From assembly GCA_039811685.1 (NCBI GenBank), contig JBDHZC010000006.1, forward strand, positions 96,001-160,000: 64,000 nucleotides of DNA, in the 5' to 3' direction. This document shows positions 12,506 through 23,688 of the stretch, one piece after another (position 1 is the first letter of the stretch; the number at the start of each line of letters is the position of its first letter). Under the pieces are notes generated by a model. The model was not told the origin of the DNA and made no database searches. It saw nothing but the letters and a program-made list of their open reading frames with translations. The translations under genes and the position numbers were made by a program. This stretch comes from Armatimonadota bacterium. GTDB taxonomy: Bacteria > Armatimonadota > UBA5829 > DSUL01.

Positions 12506-13408
12506 TCATTTTCCCTCCATCGCCTCCAGCAGACCGCCCGGCCCGGTGTGCGGTATCGTAACATGGTTGACGCCGCGCAGCTCATGAAAACGGATGGACG
12601 GCGACAGCAGTGGGAGCGAGCGCCCCATCGTGACAGGAATGACACGGTCCTGATCGCCGTGCAAGATAACGATGCGGGGAGCTTGGCGGCGCTTCAGCAA
12701 CTGCCTGATACGCGCCCGGTTGTCGTAGCGGTCGCGAAGCAGATGGGAAAGCGGCCAGCCCACGCGGCGCAGGGCCATGTCATACGTGCTGGTGAAGGGA
12801 GAGGCCAGTACGACCCGCTTCACCGGATGACGCATGTCAAAGAGCAGGCTGGTGGCGCAGCCGAGGGAATGTCCCACGCTGCCGATGTTCTGCTCCAGCC
12901 GGGGGACCGGCGTCGCCAGATAGGCAGACAGCGCCTTCAGCGCTCCTTCGCTTCCAGCGAGGATGGTCCCGGGAGAGGGGGTCCCTTCTGAGAAGCCGTA
13001 CCCCGGATAGTCCACCAGAAGAAATCCTGCGAAAGGGTCGCGCCTGCGGGCCTCGTTCACAAGCGGCAACCAGCCGAGAGCGACCGAGCCATTTCCGCCG
13101 AACATCACCCACAGGCGCCTGGGGGCATGGCTCGGCAGAAGAGCGGGTTCCACGTAAAAGGACTTCTGTTGCCAGACCTGGCCATCCGGGGAGATGCTGT
13201 AGGAGAGCGGGACGACTCCGGGCGGAAGCCTATGGAGCGTGCCCGCGGGATAGTGAGCGCGCTGATAGAGGATTCTGCCCTGCGACAGATAGAGTAGCGC
13301 CACCGCCGTCACTGCGGCGAGCAGCAGACTGCGCAAAAAAACAGGCCAGGTGAGTTGCCTGGCGATCAAGCCGCGGAAGCGCGCATGAATCGCATGGGCT
13401 CTACTCAT
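12506..13408 (-). CDS. Membrane-anchored alpha/beta hydrolase
   Basis: FGGNG, DYPGYGFSEG, GHSLG nucleophile elbow, HGDQD, NH; ATG at 13408 overlaps the permease stop region. Confidence 0.88.
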   Translation of the reverse strand: MSRAHAIHARFRGLIARQLTWPVFLRSLLLAAVTAVALLYLSQGRILYQRAHYPAGTLHRLPPGVVPLSYSISPDGQVWQQKSFYVEPALLPSHAPRRLWVMFGGNGSVALGWLPLVNEARRRDPFAGFLLVDYPGYGFSEGTPSPGTILAGSEGALKALSAYLATPVPRLEQNIGSVGHSLGCATSLLFDMRHPVKRVVLASPFTSTYDMALRRVGWPLSHLLRDRYDNRARIRQLLKRRQAPRIVILHGDQDRVIPVTMGRSLPLLSPSIRFHELRGVNHVTIPHTGPGGLLEAMEGK

Positions 13409-14702
13409 ACCGAAGCGCGGCAATCGGGTCCACGTAGGCGGCGCGAATGGCAGGATACAGTCCGAAGATCACGCCCACCCCACTGGCAACCGACAGCGAG
13501 AGCGCAATGGCATGGACGCTGACCACTGTTTTCCACCCTGCGTACTGAGCAATAAGCTGTGCGCCTCCCACGCCCAGTCCCACTCCCAGCACTCCGCCAA
13601 AGATGGTGATGACCAGAGCTTCCAGAAGAAACTGGCGGACGATATCCGGGCGCGTCGCGCCAACGCAGCGCCGAATCCCGATCTCGCGGGTTCTCTGGGT
13701 GACGGTGGCAAGCATGATGTTCATGATGCCGATGCCGCCGACCACCAGCGAAATACCGGCGATAGCCCCCATGACGATGTTGAAGACGCGCTGAGTTTCC
13801 TGGCTCTGACGGATAAGCTCGGAGGGAATTTCTATGGCGTAGTCGTCCACATTGCGGTGCCGGCGCCGGAGAATATCATTAATAACCTCCGCCGTCACCG
13901 GAGCTGCGGCTTCTGAGCCCGCGAGCACCACAACGCCCGACAGCGGCGTGTTGTCACGAGCCTGTCTTGCCGTCATAGCGCGCAGAAGCTGCATGACGGC
14001 GTTTGCATTCGTCGGCACCGGTTGTTCAGAATATATCAGGAAGTCTTTCATAGCGACTTCGATGGGGATGTAGATGTCGAAGTCCTGATCCGGTATCTCG
14101 ACCACAGTGCTGGACGGAACGATTTTCTCCGCCAGAGAGCCGACTACCGTAAACACTTTTCCTGAGAGCTTGACAGTACGTCCTACCGGATTTTCAAAGC
14201 CAAACAGGCGGCGGCGAACTCCAGACCCCAGAACGCACACACTGGCCATTGATATGGAATCATGCTGGGTGAGAAAGCGTCCGGCGGCCAATTCCGATCG
14301 CGTGACATTCCTGTAGCCAGCCGCCGTACCGAGAACCTTCGCCTGAACCGGCGTGCCGACAGTCTGCAACTCCGCCACCACCTGGCGCACAGGCACAACG
14401 TCCACAGCGTACGACAGAACCTGCCTTATCGCCACGACGTCACCGTAGTTAAGACCATACGGGGACTTCTCCTGAGCTTTCTCAAGGGCCAGTCCCGCCA
14501 TGGACTTGCGCTCCACGCGGATAACATCCACTCCGAGCAGCTTGAGCTGAGCCATCGCTTCCAGGCGCGCTCCTTCGCCAATGGACACCATCGCAATAAC
14601 TGCCGCCACACCGAAGATGACTCCCAACATCGTGAGAAACGAGCGCAACTTGTGCGCAAGTATCTCCGATAGCCCGCTGACGACAGCTTCCCAAACGCCC
14701 AT
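13401..14702 (-). CDS. MacB/FtsX-family ABC permease (no nucleotide-binding domain)
   Basis: HKLRSFLTMLGVIFGVAAV, GISLVVGGIGIMNIML, RTREIGIR, GLYPA..A...DPIAALRYE. Confidence 0.93.
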   Translation of the reverse strand: MGVWEAVVSGLSEILAHKLRSFLTMLGVIFGVAAVIAMVSIGEGARLEAMAQLKLLGVDVIRVERKSMAGLALEKAQEKSPYGLNYGDVVAIRQVLSYAVDVVPVRQVVAELQTVGTPVQAKVLGTAAGYRNVTRSELAAGRFLTQHDSISMASVCVLGSGVRRRLFGFENPVGRTVKLSGKVFTVVGSLAEKIVPSSTVVEIPDQDFDIYIPIEVAMKDFLIYSEQPVPTNANAVMQLLRAMTARQARDNTPLSGVVVLAGSEAAAPVTAEVINDILRRRHRNVDDYAIEIPSELIRQSQETQRVFNIVMGAIAGISLVVGGIGIMNIMLATVTQRTREIGIRRCVGATRPDIVRQFLLEALVITIFGGVLGVGLGVGGAQLIAQYAGWKTVVSVHAIALSLSVASGVGVIFGLYPAIRAAYVDPIAALRYE

Positions 14703-14705
14703 AGA

Positions 14706-16112
14706 TCAGGTCTTCTTCACCGAAGGAACAGGTACGTTCGCCTTGCCCGTGGCCGACTTGCCGCCAGGCCGGCTGTTTTCAGAGTCCGCGGGCGTGGCCC
14801 CTCTGGACGGGTCCCGCAGGGCAACCGCCTGACCGGGTCTGAGGCCTTTGGTGACGACGATGAAGCTGTCGTTCCGCTTTCCGACTTCGACAGTGCGCGC
14901 CGAAAACTGCGAGCCGCGTTTGACGTAAACGATCTTTTTCCCATCGCGCTCCTGCACGGCTTCCAGCGGAACATAGCTGCACTTTGGCGCCATGTCGGAG
15001 ATGATCTCGGCGTTAGCAGTCATACCCGGCCGCAGCTTCGAAGGGCCTTTGGTGACGACTTTGACGGTCACCTCAAAGTTTTTTCGTCCTGGAGTTCCCG
15101 AAGACGACTCCCACGGATTGACTTCGGTAGCCAGCGTGGAGATGTCCGTGACACTACCCGAGAACTTCGCCCCGGGCAAGGCATCCACGGTGAGACGCAC
15201 CTTCTGCCCCACCCTGACCCGGGCAATATCAGCTTCATCCACATTCACAGTTACCTGCATATTGGCCAGATCGGGAATCTGAAGCAGCGGTCGGCGCGGC
15301 CCCACAACATCTCCCTCCTTGGGCTTGCGGACGCCGTCTCCCATCCACATTTTGGTCAGGACCACCAACCCATTGCCGGGGGAGAGGACTCGCGCCTGCG
15401 CAAGCTTGCGTTTGGCCTCATCCGCCTGCTGGCGGGCCATAATCATGGCGAACTCGACGTTTTGAAGGTTGGTCTTCTCCTGTTGCTCCTTGTTCTGAAT
15501 CTCCTTCTGTTTGAGCGAAAGGGACGCCTCACCCTTTGTGACCGTCAACTCCTTTGAGCGCACTTCGATGTCCGCCAGGTCCACTTCTGTCTGCGGAATC
15601 AATTTGTCGGCGGCGAGACGCTTTTTCTTCTCCAGTTGTGTCCTGGCGCGTTCAAGCTCCGCCTTATTGAAGTCCAGGTCGGCTGTCTGCTGCTCAAGCT
15701 CGGTCTTGTTGGATTCCCCCAGAATCTCAAAGGCGAGTCTGGCCTTCTCGAGATTGGCCCGCGCGTTGCCATAGGCCAGCGTCTCCTTATTGGCCGCTTC
15801 TTTGAGGGGCTGTTCGTCGAGCTGGATTACCAGATCGCCTTTTGACACTGTCTTGCCCTCCGGGACCAGATACAATATCTTCCCCTCGGTTTCCGGAGAA
15901 ACGGCGACGCTGCTCTGAGACTCAACCGTGCCGAGTTCTTTGACACTGATGACCAGATCGCCAGTCTTTACGAGAGCCGTGGGCACAAAGGCCTCTTTCT
16001 TATCTTCAGGAAACCATTTCCGCCACTGATCGGGCACAGTTCTGTACCCAACCCAGACAACGGCGGCAAACAGCAGCCACTTCACGACAGACCAGAGTAT
16101 GCGATTTTTCAA
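14706..16112 (-). CDS. Efflux periplasmic adaptor (MacA/HlyD-like membrane fusion protein)
   Basis: N-terminal TM helix, lipoyl-like VPEGKTVSKGD, long coiled coil, VDEADIARVRVGQ, LRPGMTA. Confidence 0.92.
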   Translation of the reverse strand: MKNRILWSVVKWLLFAAVVWVGYRTVPDQWRKWFPEDKKEAFVPTALVKTGDLVISVKELGTVESQSSVAVSPETEGKILYLVPEGKTVSKGDLVIQLDEQPLKEAANKETLAYGNARANLEKARLAFEILGESNKTELEQQTADLDFNKAELERARTQLEKKKRLAADKLIPQTEVDLADIEVRSKELTVTKGEASLSLKQKEIQNKEQQEKTNLQNVEFAMIMARQQADEAKRKLAQARVLSPGNGLVVLTKMWMGDGVRKPKEGDVVGPRRPLLQIPDLANMQVTVNVDEADIARVRVGQKVRLTVDALPGAKFSGSVTDISTLATEVNPWESSSGTPGRKNFEVTVKVVTKGPSKLRPGMTANAEIISDMAPKCSYVPLEAVQERDGKKIVYVKRGSQFSARTVEVGKRNDSFIVVTKGLRPGQAVALRDPSRGATPADSENSRPGGKSATGKANVPVPSVKKT

Positions 16113-16121
16113 GGAAACACC

Positions 16122-17693
16122 TTATGACTTCTCAGGCGGCTTCGAGTCGCCTTCGACAGATGTGGACGTTTGCCCGCCCTGCGACGCAGACCCCTCCAGG
16201 CCACCGCCTGACACTTCCGCGGCCAGATCCCGCCCGACGGCCAGGTACAGGTTTATGCGGGAGAGGTAGTAGCTGATTTGCGCTGACAGAAGGCTGCTCT
16301 TTACGCGCGCCAGAGACACCTGCGCATCCAGCAAGTCTCTATTGAGCCGCAAGCCCTCCTCCACCATCCGTTGCGCCGTTGTCAGATTCTTCTGCGCAAC
16401 GTCCAGATTTGCTTCGAGGATGTCAATGGAAGCCTCTGCCGCATCCATCGAACGCGTAGCTTCCAGAACTTCGTTCCTAATCTCCTGGCGCTGAAACTCC
16501 CGCTGCGTCAGGAGCTGATCCAGGCTTCGCGCTGCCATCAGCTTTCGCTCGCGGCGCGAGACGCTGCCCAAGGGCATGGTGTATTCGAGTCCGGCGGTCC
16601 AGCTTGTCGCAGACGTATAGCTGTCTGACCCGCCAAACCCCAGACCGGCTTTCGTGAAGCCCCCAACGGCATTTAACTGTGGCTGAAGTCCGTTCGAGGC
16701 GAGATCTAGATCCAGTCGCTGACGCTTGACGCCAATATCCACGACGGACAGATCTCTGCGCTTCTGGAGGGCTTCCTCTACCAGCTCCGCCGGGTTGAGC
16801 TTCACACGCTCCTGCGGAACCGTATCAATGAGATCGGGCTTTTGTCCCACTTTGAGTCCCATGCCAAGGAGCAGCGCGTCCAGCGCATCCTGATAAGCGC
16901 GCTTGCGCGACACCAGCTCATCCTCACTCTGCGCAAGCTGGATTTCCGCCTGTGAGACTTCGATCTCCGCCACAAGACCCTCTTCCAGTTTCCGCCGGGC
17001 CATACGCACGGTCTCTTTGGAGATTTCTATGTCGGATTCGCTGACCGCGATAAGGTCACGCGCGCGGACGGCCTGGAAATAGTTGCGCACCGTTGTTTGC
17101 ACGAGACTCTGACGCGCGAGAAAAAGTTGATCATCACTCATGAGCACGTCATACTCAGCGTTGGTGATGCCCACGGCCGTATCCGACAGGCTCCCCGCCC
17201 CCTGTATTAGAGGGCGGCGATAGCGAAGCTGCATCGTGGAGGTGTAATTTGAGGTGCTTGCAGGAATGACGGTCGCGCTCAGTGAGTCACCAGAGCGCAA
17301 CTTCCACGCCAGCTCACTGCCCGCGCTGGCGCTCATCTCCGCCGACCCGCCGCCGACTGAGCCTTGTGAGAGACCTGCAAATACGCTGGTAGTCCGCAGC
17401 TCACGCGCGCTCAAAAGTCCGGAGCGCGCTGCCAGATAGCTGACTCGAGACTGCTTGAGCTGAGGGCTGTTCTCAAGAGCCAGACGCACTGCTTCCTGCG
17501 CTGTGAGCTTTTGCGGAACAGGCGCCTGTGACAGTCCAGAGGCTTGTGAGGACTCGGCCACTGGAAAGGATAGGCCCTGCTGTGGTTGAGCATCCGTCGG
17601 CGCCGCCTGCACCGCCGGAGAAAGAAGCAAAAGCGCCAGTGAAATCAGATAAGCCAACGCACGCACTCCCAAAACTGATGCTCGCGCTTCCAC
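16122..17693 (-). CDS. TolC-family outer-membrane efflux protein
   Basis: Signal peptide, LTAQEAVRLALENSPQL, repeated helical OEP pattern (GLVAEIEV / GLRLNRDL). Confidence 0.88.
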   Translation of the reverse strand: MEARASVLGVRALAYLISLALLLLSPAVQAAPTDAQPQQGLSFPVAESSQASGLSQAPVPQKLTAQEAVRLALENSPQLKQSRVSYLAARSGLLSARELRTTSVFAGLSQGSVGGGSAEMSASAGSELAWKLRSGDSLSATVIPASTSNYTSTMQLRYRRPLIQGAGSLSDTAVGITNAEYDVLMSDDQLFLARQSLVQTTVRNYFQAVRARDLIAVSESDIEISKETVRMARRKLEEGLVAEIEVSQAEIQLAQSEDELVSRKRAYQDALDALLLGMGLKVGQKPDLIDTVPQERVKLNPAELVEEALQKRRDLSVVDIGVKRQRLDLDLASNGLQPQLNAVGGFTKAGLGFGGSDSYTSATSWTAGLEYTMPLGSVSRRERKLMAARSLDQLLTQREFQRQEIRNEVLEATRSMDAAEASIDILEANLDVAQKNLTTAQRMVEEGLRLNRDLLDAQVSLARVKSSLLSAQISYYLSRINLYLAVGRDLAAEVSGGGLEGSASQGGQTSTSVEGDSKPPEKS

Positions 17694-17869: not shown

Positions 17870-18133
17870 CTAGTCCGCCAGCTTCAGCCCTGCCTTTCGA
17901 AGCTGCCTGGCTATCGCGGCGTTGTTTTCAATGATAAGCTGAGCGGCCAGTTCGGCCGAGTAGTCAAACATCCTTGACAGACACTCATTGGCATAGGACG
18001 ACAGAGCTCCTCTCACGTCTCTCGACTGCTGTGTGATGCGGTCGAGATCGGACAGGACAGCTCTGCGGAAGTCTGCCGCCAACGCTAACTTCAGCTCATC
18101 AGCCCGCCGTGTGGCGTCAATGCCCACTTTCAT
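17870..18133 (-). CDS. Hypothetical small helical protein (87 aa), apparently monocistronic
   Basis: ATG after AGGGAG; own promoter upstream and terminator downstream. Confidence 0.7.
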   Translation of the reverse strand: MKVGIDATRRADELKLALAADFRRAVLSDLDRITQQSRDVRGALSSYANECLSRMFDYSAELAAQLIIENNAAIARQLRKAGLKLAD

Positions 18134-18432: not shown

Positions 18433-19392
18433 CTACTTTGCGCCCGGGATGACCCAGGTGTGCATGCCTTGTGGCATATGGCATGATGCGCAACTCATCT
18501 CGGGTGTCAGCTTTGGATGCTTAGGACTGGCTACGTCGCTGGCGTGGCAACTGTTGCACAGCTCGGTCTGAGGCTTCTTCAGTTGAGCCGGCTTGTCCGA
18601 GCCTTTCCCGTGCATTTCGTGGCAGGTTATGCAGGTGACGCCCGCACCGGAGTGTTTGCTGTTCACCCACTCGTTGTACTGCTGCTTGTTACCAGGACCG
18701 TTGACCTTGTCCAGAACCAGGTAGCGGCCGAGATCGCTGCCCCACTTGTAACCCTTCGCGTAGCGCACCGTACCGTCAGTGCTTGCTCCGGTCGCGTGGC
18801 ACTGCCCGCAGATCATCGCCTGACGGGCGGGGGCGAGCGTCTTCGGATTTCCGATTTTCGTCCTGTCGGCCGTCTTGGCGTGTGCGCTGCCCGGACCATG
18901 ACATGCTTCGCACGTCACGCCGAGATCCGACCACGCGTGAGTCTGAGGATTGAAGCCTGTGGTATGTTTGGGAATAAGCTCTGTGGTAGCGTCAACGACA
19001 TCCTGCGGCTCCCACTTCGAGGCCGTCTTGTTCCACTTGCCTCTGAGAGTCTTCAGGTCTTTGTCCACGTATATCTGATAGGAGCCGTCGTTGACTATGT
19101 AAGCGACGTCAGCCTGACGGATGGGAGAGTCTTCGTCAAAGGTAGCGAGCATGGCTTTTGGCGTGTCGGCTTTCTGCATGGCATAAGGGTGTTTGGTCTT
19201 CACGAACGCCTCAACAACGGCCGGCGTCTGCACTTTGTGGCAGACCATACACACTTTGTCCATGCCAGCCGTATACGTGGCGTCGGCCGGCGGATCGGCA
19301 ATGGCCATATGCGCAACACCCAGCACAACTGCGCTCAACGTCACGCTACCCGCCACCGCCACTGCAAGCTTTGTCACTGGAGTCAGACCCAC
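18433..19392 (-). CDS. Secreted multiheme c-type cytochrome (6 CxxCH motifs)
   Basis: CMVCH, CEACH, CGQCH, CITCH, CNSCH, CASCH; signal peptide ending AIA-DPP; GTG start after GGAGGAAAGG. Confidence 0.92.
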   Translation of the reverse strand: MGLTPVTKLAVAVAGSVTLSAVVLGVAHMAIADPPADATYTAGMDKVCMVCHKVQTPAVVEAFVKTKHPYAMQKADTPKAMLATFDEDSPIRQADVAYIVNDGSYQIYVDKDLKTLRGKWNKTASKWEPQDVVDATTELIPKHTTGFNPQTHAWSDLGVTCEACHGPGSAHAKTADRTKIGNPKTLAPARQAMICGQCHATGASTDGTVRYAKGYKWGSDLGRYLVLDKVNGPGNKQQYNEWVNSKHSGAGVTCITCHEMHGKGSDKPAQLKKPQTELCNSCHASDVASPKHPKLTPEMSCASCHMPQGMHTWVIPGAK

Positions 19393-19529
19393 TCTGATAA
19401 CCTTTCCTCCGGTTAGAATGACAGGCAGCAAGCCACCCGTCAGAGTACTTTCCCTTTAGCCTTAGACGCTCCCAAACCCTGCTTTCGGCGCGCTTGTATG
19501 TAGCTTTTCTGAGAACAAAATGAGACGGC

Positions 19530-20243
19530 TCAGTGCACTACGCGCAGCCAGTCCGCCAGAAGAAACCAGACACGGCCGATCAAGAGCGACATTCTGGCCA
19601 TAACGGTGGACCCGAACATTGCCCCGAACGCGAACATCAGCATCCAGCGACCAATGCGGGCTGAACCTCCAGCCGCCTTGTGTTTGTTGTAGTCGTAGCT
19701 AAAGAAAAAGTAGCTCAATACTGTGAGCAGCACAAAAACGAACACCGCGTTGTTGAGCGCCCCGGAAACTGAGAGTGACGCTTGCGGTGTGTGGGGCGCG
19801 ATTGAGGCGGCGGTCCCAGCAGCGACGGCGTAGCTGTGATGCGGCCACAAAGGCTTCAGGCTGGCGACAATCTTGGGGAAGTTGTTGCCAGCAAAATCCT
19901 GGAACATGAAGCCAACCGCCAGCCCCATGACAATGCCGAAAGCCAGGCGGCTGATCCAGTTGTGCTTCTGGGAATAGATGAAGTAGAACATCCCGCCCCC
20001 AACAAGCGCAAACGCCCACCACCACTGCCCCTGATCCCACATCGGGACCCACCACTTCGGGATGAGCACCTCCGAGACAATCAGAAACAGCCCATAGCCA
20101 ACCGCCAGCCCCAGATAGAAATGCTCGAAGACGCGATAGACCACGTTTTCGCGGTACAGGAATGTGTAGATCGCCAGCGTGCAAATGGCCCCTGCCCAGA
20201 TGATGGCCCTCTCGCCGGTAAGCAGATGCAGCAGATCGCTCAT
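19530..20243 (-). CDS. Uncharacterised polytopic membrane protein (operon gene 6)
   Basis: About 6 hydrophobic segments; IYTFLYRENVVYRVFEHFYLG, LSYFFFS, GRWMLMFAFGAMFGSTVMARMSLLIGR; ATGA overlap with the upstream gene. Confidence 0.85.
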   Translation of the reverse strand: MSDLLHLLTGERAIIWAGAICTLAIYTFLYRENVVYRVFEHFYLGLAVGYGLFLIVSEVLIPKWWVPMWDQGQWWWAFALVGGGMFYFIYSQKHNWISRLAFGIVMGLAVGFMFQDFAGNNFPKIVASLKPLWPHHSYAVAAGTAASIAPHTPQASLSVSGALNNAVFVFVLLTVLSYFFFSYDYNKHKAAGGSARIGRWMLMFAFGAMFGSTVMARMSLLIGRVWFLLADWLRVVH

Positions 20244-21073
20244 GAGGACGCGCCTTTTGCGGCACGGGAAAGAAAGTAGCCGGCGTTGGCCAAAACGACA
20301 AGCCCAATCATCAATAGCTCGGCAAATGACAGCGAGTTGCTCCAGCGAAGTCCATTGCCTGGAATTCCCAGCAACTTCTCATACTGAGCCGCTCCGACCA
20401 TGCCGGGCAGCATACCGACGATCTGATTGGCGTCCAGAGGATCGTATCCCTGTGCCACCATAACTGCCGTAGGCGCATAACCAAGTGGAACGCCGTAGGC
20501 CTCGTGCGCAAATGCAATCAGGTCGCTGATGCCTCCAACAGGCGTGATGTGCGCAATGAAGCCGACATCGCGAATCGTCTTGATGCCGCGCATAGCCTTG
20601 AGCTTCTCAATCGGCACGCCTTTGTAGTCCTGTTTTACAGTTGCGGGAAGGTTCTTGCCCAACCCCTTGAAAAACGACGGCAGAGGCACGACACGCCAAC
20701 CCCAGTTCACCCAGTCATCTCCGTACTTCTTCCCCTCCTTTTGCGCAATCTTCTCCGCCAGGTTCTCCATCAAAGTGGACGTCTGGGGCGCGAAAGGCAG
20801 GATCGCAAAGGGGATGTTGCGGCGAAAGAGGTGCGTCATCAGAGCTGCTGTCTGCGGCTGGCTTTCGGCAATAGTGCCTGCCCCCCAGTCTCCCGTAAGA
20901 ATGGCGATCTGACCGTGGGGGATGTGCTCAACTGTGTCATAAACGCCCTGGACTTCCGGGTTCACGACTGTGGGCATCTGAAACCGGACAAACATCGGGA
21001 TAGCGACGACGACAACCAGCAGCAGATACATAATCCGCCGGTCAATTGTCTGGATAGCAAGAAGGTATTTCAT
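20240..21073 (-). CDS. Uncharacterised membrane-anchored protein, TM - soluble alpha/beta domain - TM (operon gene 5)
   Basis: IDRRIMYLL N-terminal TM, DWGAGTIAESQP, YGDDWVNWG, GMLPGMVGAAQYE, C-terminal TM. Confidence 0.85.
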   Translation of the reverse strand: MKYLLAIQTIDRRIMYLLLVVVVAIPMFVRFQMPTVVNPEVQGVYDTVEHIPHGQIAILTGDWGAGTIAESQPQTAALMTHLFRRNIPFAILPFAPQTSTLMENLAEKIAQKEGKKYGDDWVNWGWRVVPLPSFFKGLGKNLPATVKQDYKGVPIEKLKAMRGIKTIRDVGFIAHITPVGGISDLIAFAHEAYGVPLGYAPTAVMVAQGYDPLDANQIVGMLPGMVGAAQYEKLLGIPGNGLRWSNSLSFAELLMIGLVVLANAGYFLSRAAKGASS

Positions 21074-21076
21074 CTC

Positions 21077-21994
21077 TTAGACGTCGCGCTCAAAGTAGCT
21101 GCCACGCTCGAGGGAGAGCCAGATGCGAAGGCCAGTCGCCAGCATGCCCACCGCGAGTCCAAAATTGATACCCCTCTGCGCCGCTGCGTTCGGCTGTCTC
21201 AGAACCCATTGCCCAACGCGCTCGATTCTCAGATTTGACAACAGACCATGATCCGGCAGCCAGCTTGTCAGCCATGCGCCGACCGGAATCTGGCTCAGCA
21301 TCACCAGAAGCGCCGCAGCCATCATAATGCTGGCTTCGAAGCTGCGGATGCGAAAGGCGCGGTACGCTGCTGAGATAATAAAGAAGGCAATTAACGAGAA
21401 CATTGCGGCGTCGAGCTGGAAGAACAGCCCGCTCGTCGCGAACGCAAAGAGGTCCGGAATTCCAGAAAATTGCTTGAGATATCCGGCAAAGATCATGAAC
21501 GCCAGCCCGAGAAAGAAGAATGAACTGGCAAATGCGCCCTTGGTGACGTGGACGACGTTTCGGAAGTGAAGGTGGATCAGATTCCACAATCCCAGCGCGA
21601 AAGTAAACGCCCCGATAACCTGCCAGACCGTATTGACATTCTCCAGATACAAAGACAGCCAGTTCTCATCAGGCGCCAGACGCGAGTTGGACGCCAGAGG
21701 GCGCAAGAACCACCCGAACAGAGCGCTCATCGTCCGGTTCCACGGGGAGTGAGAGGCGAGCACCGTCTCTGCAGTTGCTTTCGGTGGCAGGAGAAACTCC
21801 AGGCTGAAGTACAGGCCGGCAATGAACGTGGCGGAGACGATCAGGGGCTTGCGGAAGCGCTTGGGTGTCTGCGTCAACAGAGCTATGAAGAGGCCGCCAG
21901 CGAACAGGCATCCGGCAATGTAGAGCGCGTTGAGTTTGTGATTGGGCTGCGCCTGGAAAAACGCCCCCAGCGGCAGTGCAAGACCTGTGCTCAT
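21077..21994 (-). CDS. Uncharacterised polytopic membrane protein (operon gene 4)
   Basis: About 7 hydrophobic segments; AMFSLIAFFIISAAYRAFRIRS, PNAAAQRGINFG, LRIWLSLERGSY. Confidence 0.85.
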   Translation of the reverse strand: MSTGLALPLGAFFQAQPNHKLNALYIAGCLFAGGLFIALLTQTPKRFRKPLIVSATFIAGLYFSLEFLLPPKATAETVLASHSPWNRTMSALFGWFLRPLASNSRLAPDENWLSLYLENVNTVWQVIGAFTFALGLWNLIHLHFRNVVHVTKGAFASSFFFLGLAFMIFAGYLKQFSGIPDLFAFATSGLFFQLDAAMFSLIAFFIISAAYRAFRIRSFEASIMMAAALLVMLSQIPVGAWLTSWLPDHGLLSNLRIERVGQWVLRQPNAAAQRGINFGLAVGMLATGLRIWLSLERGSYFERDV

Positions 21995-22827
21995 CCGCCC
22001 ACCGGGAGTGAAAAGAATTCGACGACTTTCAGCAGAGCCGCTGGCCAGTGCCGATCAAGCCCGAGCTGCGCTCCCAAAGCTGTGCCACCCGAGATTCCCG
22101 CCACAGTGACCGAGATAACCCCCAGAACGACACATGCGATAAGCACCAGCTTGGCCCAGTCCTGCCCAACGAGGCTTCCGAGCAGGGTCGGCTCTTTGGA
22201 GAGGTAAGCGCTTCCCGCGTAGTACTCATCTCCAATAATTGTGTAATCACATGCGGCGATGAAGAACGGAAGCTGCGCAGTCTCCGGCGTCCCGGCTACC
22301 TGGATCGCGCCCACATGGTGCCCCGTCTCCGCCAGAATGAGCGACTCAGCAAAGAAGTTGCCAAAGTAAAAACAGCTCGCCACACGCTCCCTCGTCATGA
22401 CGCCCACGGAGGCTGACGCATACGCAAACTGCTGGTCGGAGAGAAACTGGATGTCCTGGGGTTCGTACAACTCAGGCGTTCCTTCGTGCGTGTAGGCTTC
22501 CCGCGCGACTTCCTGAGCGATCGTGAAAAGCACCGCATCTGCCAGCGCAACAATAACCCGCGTCCGGAACTTCGCAGCCAGCCGCAAAATGTGCGACAAA
22601 ATGGACATTGACTGCAGCCCGACGATATTGAGTCCCTGAATGCCTGGAGAGTAGAAGATCGCCCGCCCCATTTCAGTCGCGCGCCCGACAGCTTCGTCAA
22701 TGGCCTGCAGCCCCGGAATCTTTCTAATGAACAGCTCCGCGCCGCGACGCGCGGACACAATCTTGTAAAGAATCAAAAAGCACAGAATGAACTCGATCAG
22801 AGCAACAGAGAGATTGGCGTGCTTCAC
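21991..22827 (-). CDS. DUF6754-like uncharacterised membrane-anchored protein (operon gene 3)
   Basis: IRKIPGLQAIDEAVGRATEMGR, QFAYA, FFAESLILAETG, QVAGT, QLPFFIAACDYTIIGDEYYAGSAYLS; family name recalled from these motifs; GTG start after AAGGAAG. Confidence 0.85.
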   Translation of the reverse strand: MKHANLSVALIEFILCFLILYKIVSARRGAELFIRKIPGLQAIDEAVGRATEMGRAIFYSPGIQGLNIVGLQSMSILSHILRLAAKFRTRVIVALADAVLFTIAQEVAREAYTHEGTPELYEPQDIQFLSDQQFAYASASVGVMTRERVASCFYFGNFFAESLILAETGHHVGAIQVAGTPETAQLPFFIAACDYTIIGDEYYAGSAYLSKEPTLLGSLVGQDWAKLVLIACVVLGVISVTVAGISGGTALGAQLGLDRHWPAALLKVVEFFSLPVGG

Positions 22828-23123
22828 GTCGCTTCCTTTACCCGCGCCGCGTGCATCGCTTCGATATGACCGATCAGCCTTTCAGCGCCTCCGTCCTGGT
22901 ACATCAGTCTTGAAAACTCTCCCACACCGTCCAGCCCAAAGACCGGCGCCAGCACGGGTGAGGCCACAAGCAGCGCCTGTCCGGCCAATCGGGATAGGGG
23001 GCGGTGCATATCAAGGAACAGAATTGCCGGTGTGGCCAGGCCAAGCCGGACAACTCTGCGGGCAATCCTGCGGCACAGCTCCTCGGCCTGCTCCGGCGCC
23101 AGCGGCTCATTCAGATCAATCAA
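22824..23123 (-). CDS. Small hypothetical protein (operon gene 2)
   Basis: IARRVVRLGLATPAILFLDMHRPLSRLAGQAL; TTG start at 23123 after AGGAAG, overlapping the upstream stop. Confidence 0.75.
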   Translation of the reverse strand: MIDLNEPLAPEQAEELCRRIARRVVRLGLATPAILFLDMHRPLSRLAGQALLVASPVLAPVFGLDGVGEFSRLMYQDGGAERLIGHIEAMHAARVKEAT

Positions 23124-23586
23124 CGGCGGCCGCTTCCTGACTTCGGCAGCGCTGCACAACATCCAGCACTTCCTGCCGGTTCCCAGCAAACCGAAGAAAA
23201 ACTCCGCGGTAAACCTCCCTGCGAGAGCGAACGCTCAGAGGAGATAGCTTCACGCCATCGCCTGCCAGCCATATTCTGCGCACGTTCTCCCAGCCGATTT
23301 CGCTGCGAGAAAACAGACAGCGAGCGCCCGCGCTCTTCGCGCTGATGAAGTAGTGCACGGGAAATAGATAGTCAGCCACAGAAGCCACAATGGCAGCCCC
23401 CACCACAACCGCAGCGCCCCAGCCGAACATGGAGGCTCCTGCCCAGCCTGCGACCAGAACGCAGCCTATCACCACGGGTAGGCGGCGCGGGTCTTCTCTG
23501 AGCCGGTGCGTACTCCACTGCAGCACAGGCACGTGCGCGCATGGACTAAGGGTTTCTAATTCGAGAGTTGTGTGGCAATCTGACAT
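23116..23586 (-). CDS. Hypothetical two-TM protein with C-terminal PH-like beta domain (operon gene 1)
   Basis: Hydrophobic hairpin, YLFPVHY, IGWENVRR, GVKLSP...RREVYRGVFLRF. Confidence 0.75.
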   Translation of the reverse strand: MSDCHTTLELETLSPCAHVPVLQWSTHRLREDPRRLPVVIGCVLVAGWAGASMFGWGAAVVVGAAIVASVADYLFPVHYFISAKSAGARCLFSRSEIGWENVRRIWLAGDGVKLSPLSVRSRREVYRGVFLRFAGNRQEVLDVVQRCRSQEAAAVD

Positions 23587-23658
23587 AGTCTGAGCAAGAA
23601 GTCAGTAGACCGCGAAAGCGCGTTGGCGCAAATACTCCCGCGTGGTGTTGGACACAGG

Positions 23659-23688
23659 ATTCTATCTGCGCACGCAAAATCCCTGCAA
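23659..23688 (-). promoter_or_regulatory. Putative sigma-70 promoter of the six-gene membrane operon
   Basis: Minus strand TTGCAG-18 nt-TAGAAT in the 128-bp gap after dxs. Confidence 0.6.

Follow-up and report, generated by a model that had tools for sequence, protein, structure and literature searches.

A DUF6754 membrane module of an Armatimonadota genome and its detached actin-fold ATPase: probably an ATP-driven transporter of a new kind

What is made by six tightly packed genes of which only one, a DUF6754 gene, belongs to a named family? The question is raised by an Armatimonadota genome (GenBank assembly GCA_039811685.1), in a 64,000-nucleotide stretch (positions 96,001 to 160,000 of contig JBDHZC010000006.1; hereafter the window) that carries the six genes, here G1 to G6, on its minus strand with a multihaem cytochrome gene behind them. 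Comparison with related loci leads us to view the module as the membrane half of a widespread and uncharacterised bacterial machine, the ATPase of which is encoded elsewhere in the genome, and which is probably an ATP-driven transporter of a new kind. An earlier examination of the letters by themselves (the sequence-only reading) had proposed an undescribed membrane machine, either an ATP-independent transporter or an ion-coupled or redox complex, possibly partnered by the cytochrome. A conserved, uncharacterised complex is indeed present, but the co-occurrence of an ATPase makes ATP independence unlikely, and the cytochrome partnership is contradicted by its presence in only 3 of 301 loci.

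From G1 to G4 successive genes overlap by 8, 4 and 4 nt, G4 and G5 are 3 nt apart, and G5 overlaps G6 by 4 nt, all as the sequence-only reading had measured them. G3 (278 amino acids, aa; 21991-22827), which that reading described as DUF6754-like, is a full member of the family, matching PF20539 at 325.8 bits against a cut-off of 27 (E 2e-97; profile positions 9-249 of 257). The other five, G1 (156 aa; 23116-23586), G2 (99 aa with a TTG start; 22824-23123), G4 (305 aa; 21077-21994), G5 (277 aa; 20240-21073) and G6 (237 aa; 19530-20243), match no Pfam or NCBIfam family above cut-off. The reported lack of Walker motifs and Fe-S cysteines holds, with no Walker A or CxxC in any of the six proteins, and hydropathy agrees that there are two proteins in which transmembrane (TM) helices bracket a soluble domain (G3 and G5, or A and A') and two with many TM helices (G4 and G6, or B and B'). 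G4 has seven hydrophobic segments in this genome, the six of the family core and an additional N-terminal one in this lineage; G6 has five above threshold with a borderline sixth at about residues 41-60, and its conserved C-terminal hairpin is rich in Gly, Met, Thr and Arg. The small proteins are a putative accessory subunit, G1, with a hydrophobic hairpin (residues ~37-73) and a PH-like domain (6 of 44 homologues match bPH_6, PF10756, best E 9.6e-06), and a likely adaptor, G2, for which no Pfam family is found among 60 homologues. None of G3, G4, G5, G6 and the ATPase described below has a significant sequence match in the PDB, and atlas look-ups returned only the families' own clusters.

The distribution of the module was followed in 40 loci picked across the families of Armatimonadota, in 100 further loci (97 from Armatimonadota and 3 from Nitrospirota), and in the best 80 of at least 621 loci from a wider species-wide search, which are mostly from other phyla; related genomes are not independent, and the locus counts and co-occurrence figures given here are patterns and not statistics. 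DUF6754 is present in 132 of 151 Armatimonadota genomes. All four large genes are found in 39 of the 40 across-family loci and all six genes in 35, the order G3-G4-G5-G6 is kept in 92 of the 100 further loci (with G2 in 77 and G1 in 63), and all four large genes are found in 69 of the best 80, many of the loci that miss some of G3-G6 being contig ends. The same four genes recur in the same order in about a dozen phyla, and the carriers include Nitrospira, Poribacteria, WOR-3, Ignavibacteria, Zixibacteria, anammox Planctomycetota and Methylomirabilis, among others. The sequence-only reading placed similar gene sets in uncultured lineages, and the neighbourhood survey does find a conserved syntenic module across phyla; together with the family match it supports a membrane module of several subunits around DUF6754 that is conserved and uncharacterised. 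A plasmid search gave no G3 match.

G1 is present in 36 of the 40 across-family loci and in 8 of the best 80 from the wider search; G2 is present in 38 and 33 of these, respectively, as well as in 46 of 80 loci anchored on the ATPase, and usually directly precedes the ATPase gene. More than one G3 occurs in 12 of the best 80 loci, several of which carry two or three whole tandem cassettes behind one ATPase. Because whole cassettes are held in this way, the repeating unit is G3-G4-G5-G6, and G1 and G2 often travel with the ATPase. Where G3 stands apart, G4 and G6 are found elsewhere in the genome in five of five cases. One family of Armatimonadota (f7) lacks both DUF6754 and the ATPase in 13 of 13 genomes, and its comparison with sister families could reveal the lost function. 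Separately, we note that in four loci of family f20 (L056, L252, L266 and L278) and in L307 the operon is split after G3, with G4 and G6 on other contigs, and that G3 of L056 starts with a zinc-ribbon-like CxxC...CxxC stretch.

Many loci hold two extra genes between G2 and G3, encoding a PF13941 (GlmL/MutL-like) protein of about 600 aa and a 375-aa partner, and the full gene order is G1-G2-ATPase-partner-(G3-G4-G5-G6) x n. All eight genes are single-copy in the source genome, with the ATPase (593 aa) and partner genes adjacent on contig C3 (G000:C3:145582-148482), outside the window. The ATPase matches PF13941 at 427.3 bits over its first 480 residues and is 56-62% identical across 18 aligned rows, in all 18 of which the motifs D11-C-G-S-T-T-T-K, D286-I-G-G-A-T-T-D and G420-S-G-G are invariant. 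These we take to be the phosphate-1, phosphate-2 and adenosine sites of the actin/Hsp70/sugar-kinase (ASKHA) fold, and the detached gene appears to encode an actin-fold ATPase with its ATP-site motifs intact. The known GlmL/MutL (PF13941; NF040745, TIGR01319) and Or-4 (NF040744) proteins are accessory proteins of B12 mutases, of which it is a relative and not a member: its scores lie below the cut-offs (NF040745, 234.9 against 475; NF040744, 220.8 against 600; TIGR01319, 182.5 against 204.05), it is about 130 residues longer than GlmL, and it is followed by the fixed partner gene. No match to PF06368 (glutamate mutase E) or PF09043 was found in the source genome (97% complete), in a search in which controls were weak or silent, and no mutase family is among the conserved neighbours of the module; the 'glutamate mutase L' labels found in carrier genomes mislead metabolic reconstructions.

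The partner has lipoyl-like or RnfC/NqrA-like barrel-sandwich features and a swivel-like domain, and its C-terminus is KOW-like (weak SPT5/NusG matches, E 0.23-0.74); a sequence search of solved structures gave weak RraA and KOW matches only. None of its invariant or nearly invariant columns (32 rows) holds a His, Cys or Lys, and a role as a phosphotransferase-system or lipoyl carrier was rejected, no invariant phospho-His/Cys or lipoyl-Lys being present. A side observation on these two genes is that L203 and L212 contain two diverged ATPase genes in tandem, each with its own partner gene, behind an M20 peptidase.

The ATPase and the membrane module are distributed almost identically. Among the 151 Armatimonadota genomes 132 have both DUF6754 and the ATPase, 17 have neither and two have the ATPase only, and among 101 Nitrospirota genomes the same 15 carry both. 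The ATPase lies within the same locus in 40 of the best 80 loci of the wider search and in 6 of the 40 across-family loci, and where the locus lacks it an ATPase is present elsewhere in the genome in 35 of 40 cases. When the ATPase is taken as the starting point, the partner is found in 50 of 80 metagenome loci (many on short contigs), G2 in 46 of them and G3 in 24. Five near-closed genomes without G3 and the ATPase gave no G2 (0 of 5, in a search without a positive control) and one marginal G1 match. We are highly confident that the six genes and the detached ATPase pair constitute one system.

The two soluble domains of the cassette resemble one another in predicted structure. The models of G3 and G5 (predicted local distance difference test, pLDDT, 92.4 and 94.8) both place an alpha/beta domain of six to seven strands, with a helix on either side of it, between two TM helices, and the order of elements is identical. 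They share in-register fold matches to 1kjn (G3, Z 10.2, root-mean-square deviation (rmsd) 3.3, 133 aligned; G5, Z 9.9, rmsd 3.3, 140 aligned), to SIRT1, 4i5i (Z 9.6, rmsd 3.9, 141 aligned; Z 9.2, rmsd 4.6, 152 aligned) and to transhydrogenase domain III, 4j16_C (Z 9.4, rmsd 3.5, 139 aligned; Z 7.7, rmsd 3.9, 142 aligned), and RCK domains are among the matches of both (6i8v, Z 9.9 for G3). A Foldseek search with G3 was uninformative (best E 9.9e-04 with a TM-score of 0.30). The invariant polar residues of G3 are R35, R49, E52, E167, Q176, Q185, D194, E201 and D223, with C193 in 98%; conserved positions lie at strand ends (G62, Q133, E161, T180, Q185, E201) and at the foot of the second TM helix (D223, K226), and the order of elements, as opposed to coordinates, suggests that this polar edge faces the membrane.

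The flanking charges predict that the two copies lie on opposite sides of the cytoplasmic membrane. Lysine and arginine (K/R) beside the TM helices of G3 number 6.0 on the domain side against 0.3 and 0.2 at the termini, and those of G5 2.4 against 4.6, a bias seen in 84% of 99 rows; the G4 core has a K/R bias that places both ends inside in 98 of 98 rows, and G6 has the opposite bias in 87% of 94 rows. Many G3 orthologues begin with a signal peptide and an Fn3 domain destined for export (Fn3 is found in four of seven long orthologues tested), which places the G3 N-terminus outside and therefore its domain inside. A Planctomycetota G4 (L126:1255-2598) has a G5-type domain inserted between its third and fourth TM helices, followed by a separate full G5; the insertion is in a K/R-poor loop of G4 and so puts the G5-type domain outside. 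The G3 domain would thus be inside the cell and the G5 domain outside, with G4 and G6 oppositely oriented, and as G3 and G5, and likewise G4 and G6, face opposite ways, the A-B-A'-B' pseudo-symmetry of the sequence-only reading would be an inverted one. That proposal is borne out in part: A and A' are alike at the level of the predicted fold, and homology of B and B' is not detected, such that the predicted inverted repeat applies to fold for G3 and G5 and to orientation only for G4 and G6. Profile comparisons of G3 with G6, of G4 with G5 and of the partner with the ATPase gave nothing. As a further observation on G6, two long forms (P0128 and P0129) have about 180-200 extra residues, without a Pfam domain, between the fourth and fifth TM helices in a predicted outer loop.

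That G3-G4-G5-G6 act as one complex is suggested because their order is fixed, they are translationally coupled, they are duplicated jointly, and one pair of residues co-varies between G4 and G6. In an alignment of 232 cassettes (effective depth 150, at which intra-chain predictions are noisy), G4 S200 and G6 Y26, both in TM helices, occur as SY in 119 rows, AF in 42, SF in 28 and AL in 17; their z of 15.3 lies above all 120 maxima of mispaired controls and points to a G4-G6 contact. Two further pairs fit the topology but are within the control range: on the inside G4 Y211-G5 I10, with a z of 10.2 that 3 of 120 control maxima attain, and on the outside G5 A215-G6 A127, with a z of 9.0 that 7 of 120 attain. 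A search for gene fusions, a weak test, gave none for G5 and three lengthened forms of G6, of which two have extra sequence in the predicted outer loop. Prediction of a G4, G5 and G6 complex with G3 as partner scored 0.54, against 0.55 for a control with G5 replaced, and counts neither way.

A plausible scenario is that G3-G4-G5-G6 would form one complex in the cytoplasmic membrane with the layout of an inverted pseudo-repeat. Its core would consist of G4 and G6, of about six TM helices each and in opposite orientation, and G5 and G3, with the same Rossmann-like fold, would cap it on the outside and inside, respectively. On the G3 side a cytoplasmic module would dock, comprising the long GlmL/MutL-like actin-fold ATPase, the 375-aa barrel-sandwich/swivel/KOW partner, G2 and often G1, and ATP binding and hydrolysis may then rock the two lids alternately. 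One ATPase module would serve one to three cassettes. A lid on each face together with a cytoplasmic ATPase would most simply make an ATP-driven alternating-access transporter, and the cargo may be a small polar or anionic organic solute moved inward, most likely peptides or amino acids. ATPase docking, transport, direction and substrate are all matters of inference here. Our tentative choice is an importer that takes up small organic solutes at the expense of ATP and is lidded on both membrane faces, to which we give a little less than an even chance.

Clues to the substrate come from the core and from the neighbours. The conserved residues of G4 and G6 are Arg, Met, Thr, Ser and aromatic, among them R212, R215, R274 and R297 of G4 and R99, R217 and R224 of G6, and no conserved carboxylate lies inside their predicted TM helices, a combination better matched to a polar or anionic organic substrate than to the pumping of H+ or Na+. 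In 20 of 201 loci, spread over at least three clades of the ATPase tree, a gene for the glycine-cleavage P protein is found no more than 3 kb away on the same strand; other neighbours in these 201 loci are lipoate ligase or synthase (8), Opp ATPase (4), OppA (2) and M20 peptidase (2). Altogether the neighbours show a modest lean towards amino-acid and peptide catabolism. For reference, the loci with the P-protein gene are L105, L106, L124, L149, L173, L175, L177, L179-L184, L186, L191, L200, L206, L209, L225 and L233. In 25 loci (for example L084, L088 and L089), all from the Nitrospirota clade, G6 is followed by a gene of Memo-like type, which is probably lineage synteny.

Several observations weigh against this importer. 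Glycine cleavage was rejected as an obligate partner, being present in 15 of 17 genomes without the system and 19 of 23 with it, and it is also found in 10 of 15 Nitrospirota without the system. Genes for Opp proteins and peptidases adjoin few loci, the majority of neighbours being housekeeping genes specific to a lineage; a riboswitch search that included cobalamin found none in 25 loci and the window, with a single rRNA match; and the retention of the system by nitrifying and anammox autotrophs is awkward for peptide feeding. On the structural side, the fold matches are generic Rossmann ones, with 330 chains at Z of at least 8 for G3, and because none stands out the fold of G3 and G5 gives no function. 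The sequence similarity of G3 and G5, though in register, falls short of significance (hhalign probability 1.6-3.2%, E 0.033-0.014), homology of G4 and G6 was not detected by profile comparison, all inter-subunit couplings of G3 are at noise level, and the topology is drawn from charge bias and not from experiment. Lastly, 5 of 40 genomes (assemblies of 1.4-2.4 Mb, completeness not given) showed no ATPase.

The same two-sided, ATP-driven machine could instead work outwards, as an exporter or a flippase of a lipid-linked substrate for the cell envelope. The evidence on architecture is identical and does not fix direction, the conserved Arg residues of G4 and G6 would suit a phosphate-bearing substrate, and near-universal retention in Armatimonadota suits a housekeeping role. 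Lipid genes do lie nearby, with dxs and ispE in the window and elsewhere PlsY, PlsX (3 loci) and CDP-diacylglycerol-type transferases (2), but these neighbours are lineage-specific and never in the core. One whole family (0 of 13 genomes) and 86 of 101 Nitrospirota do without the system, and diverged tandem cassettes fit several substrates better than a single envelope step. We regard this alternative as unlikely, if still one to be reckoned with.

A membrane enzyme or energy converter is somewhat less probable again. The actin-fold protein would here be a kinase or activase, comparable to those in hydantoinase/oxoprolinase and acetate kinase, with G3 catalytic and the complex coupled to ion movement or to ATP formation in amino-acid breakdown. 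The many invariant polar residues of G3 are as expected for an active site, and the weak Hydantoinase_A match of the ATPase (E 3.2e-05), the RnfC/NqrA-like barrel-sandwich and swivel-like features of the partner, and the glycine-cleavage genes upstream in at least three clades all point the same way. Set against these, G4 and G6 have no conserved TM carboxylate, G4-G6 have no conserved His or Cys for a cofactor, the partner lacks an invariant His, Cys or Lys with which to act as a phospho- or lipoyl-carrier, and an outer copy of the same fold is left unexplained.

We consider it improbable that the complex is a transmembrane sensor or remodeller, in which G5 and the Fn3 head would bind outside, G3 would relay the signal, and the ATPase would reset or disassemble the complex, a role proposed for GlmL-type proteins on B12 mutases. 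GlmL and Or-4 are the nearest named families of the ATPase, RCK/KTN gating domains are among the tied fold matches of both G3 and G5, and the partner ends in a KOW-like domain; however, the set includes no conserved kinase, cyclase or regulator gene, and twelve core TM helices with conserved polar residues are more than a relay needs.

Even less credit goes to an ATP-independent secondary transporter or channel, one of the two proposals of the sequence-only reading, with the ATPase serving only as a regulator or assembly factor. Inverted repeats are typical of secondary carriers and one is predicted here, the ATPase is unlinked in most Armatimonadota genomes, and cassettes outnumber ATPases in some genomes. 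Yet the ATPase and its partner belong to the conserved set and are present on contig C3, and ATP independence is unlikely because the pair co-occurs almost perfectly with DUF6754, frequently in co-transcriptional order within the operon; there is also no conserved mid-membrane carboxylate for ion coupling. The second proposal, in which the module and the multihaem cytochrome make up a redox or ion-coupled complex, is largely refuted as a general feature and is the most improbable of all. In its favour, the cytochrome lies 137 bp downstream without a terminator-like site and is kept in three of three genomes of the same family. Against it, no multihaem open reading frame (ORF) is found in 298 of 301 loci, three relatives have a promoter-like site of its own before the cytochrome and two have repeat elements there, and G4 and G6 have no Cys or His conserved (90% threshold for Cys, 232 rows) or mid-membrane carboxylate, G4-G6 being without metal ligands, unlike RnfA and RnfE with four conserved Cys (PMC9588780).

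The ATP-driven two-lid transporter that we favour has partial counterparts among known systems. ATP-binding cassette (ABC) and energy-coupling factor (ECF) importers are likewise ATP-driven, have an outer capture part, and have an energising module common to several substrate modules. They differ in using a P-loop ATPase; in the present system the ATPase of the conserved set is an actin-fold PF13941 protein and not a P-loop ABC protein, no Walker A is found in G1-G6, and Opp ATPases adjoin only the four loci mentioned above. RnfA and RnfE are two subunits of six TM helices in opposite orientation, and Rnf/Nqr also resemble the module in having a soluble partner of the RnfC/NqrA barrel-sandwich type. 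These complexes differ in a Cys-ligated iron site, in which RnfA and RnfE bind iron through four conserved Cys (PMC9588780), and in flavin and Fe-S subunits. None of the latter are among the families recurring across 121 loci of the module, which has an ATPase in their place. RCK/KTN-gated K+ systems (KtrAB, TrkAH, Kef) and transhydrogenase domain III share membrane-attached Rossmann-like domains, but they do not repeat the domain on the outer side, their fold matches are tied with those to dehydrogenases, sirtuins and glycosyltransferases, and G3-G6 have no Pfam match to RCK or Trk/Ktr-type families. The inverted-repeat class of transporters is fitted by G3 and G5 in predicted fold and charge bias, and by G4 and G6 in opposite orientation, homology of the latter two not being detected. 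PF20539 itself is a label without a function that covers one of the eight genes, and DUF6754 is not named in the literature searched, most subscription journals and supplements being outside its scope.

We know of no solute transporter powered by an ATPase of the actin/Hsp70 fold, and of none with the same soluble fold on both membrane faces. There is an even chance, in our estimate, that the system represents a new class of primary active transporter next to the ABC, P-type and rotary ATPases, in which an actin-fold ATPase drives a core gated on both faces by opposite and homologous Rossmann-fold lids, with one module serving several cassettes. The system is near-core in Armatimonadota and is retained elsewhere, among others by Nitrospira, anammox bacteria, Methylomirabilis, Poribacteria, WOR-3 and Zixibacteria, and its level of conservation (132 of 151 genomes, ATPase identity of 56-62%) points to a missing piece of basic physiology. 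The topology offers direct tests, namely the outward domain, the residues lining the path and the place where the ATPase docks. The present locus contributes a detached ATPase in a genome where each part occurs once; it also leads us to reject the tie to the cytochrome and to predict an inverted architecture.

The cytochrome gene (18433-19392, minus strand; 319 aa from a GTG start) was correctly described as encoding an exported six-haem protein, with six CxxCH motifs, an N-terminal hydrophobic leader, and matches above cut-off to PF09699, PF13435 and PF14522 as well as to NCBIfam multihaem families. The 301 loci checked for it comprise sets of 40, 81, 80 and 100, the last 100 reaching only about 1.4 kb past G6. 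It accompanies the module in three, all from the source genome's own family, and for this reason the suggested partnership and redox link are rejected; the cytochrome is a family-specific passenger outside the system. In its three relatives it occupies the same place, and in two of them the repeat elements lie between it and G6. The relatives have seven haem motifs, the second of which is missing from this copy (LIPKH at residue 139, where the three have CVPCH).

The 137-bp interval between G6 and the cytochrome (19393-19529) is as the sequence-only reading described it, and a site scan found no terminator-like site within it. RNA contigs (four runs) match parts of G1-G6 and of the cytochrome at 99% or more and carry no information on strand or level; one spans 19387-19537 but has fewer than 31 letters in either gene and does not bridge the two. 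The RNA contigs thus neither show nor exclude read-through from G6 into the cytochrome.

The promoter proposed for the six genes, TTGCAG-18-TAGAAT, is present on the minus strand (23688-23659) but is a weak match, with 8 of 12 consensus bases, and is absent from the list of a consensus scanner. The region has about as many promoter-like sites as chance would give (3 found against 2.9 expected), and this one is not plainly conserved in the three relatives. The dxs gene sits 128 bp upstream of G1 on the same strand; a separate promoter for G1-G6 is unproven, and read-through from dxs is possible.

Among the other features of the window, we note that an 87-aa ORF (17870-18133, minus strand), without a Pfam family above cut-off, lies behind the best promoter match of the region (18266-18238, 10 of 12 bases) and is covered by an RNA contig in four of four runs. 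Further downstream an export operon (12506-17693, minus strand) encodes an outer-membrane efflux protein, an HlyD-type adaptor, a probable MacB-type permease and an alpha/beta hydrolase.

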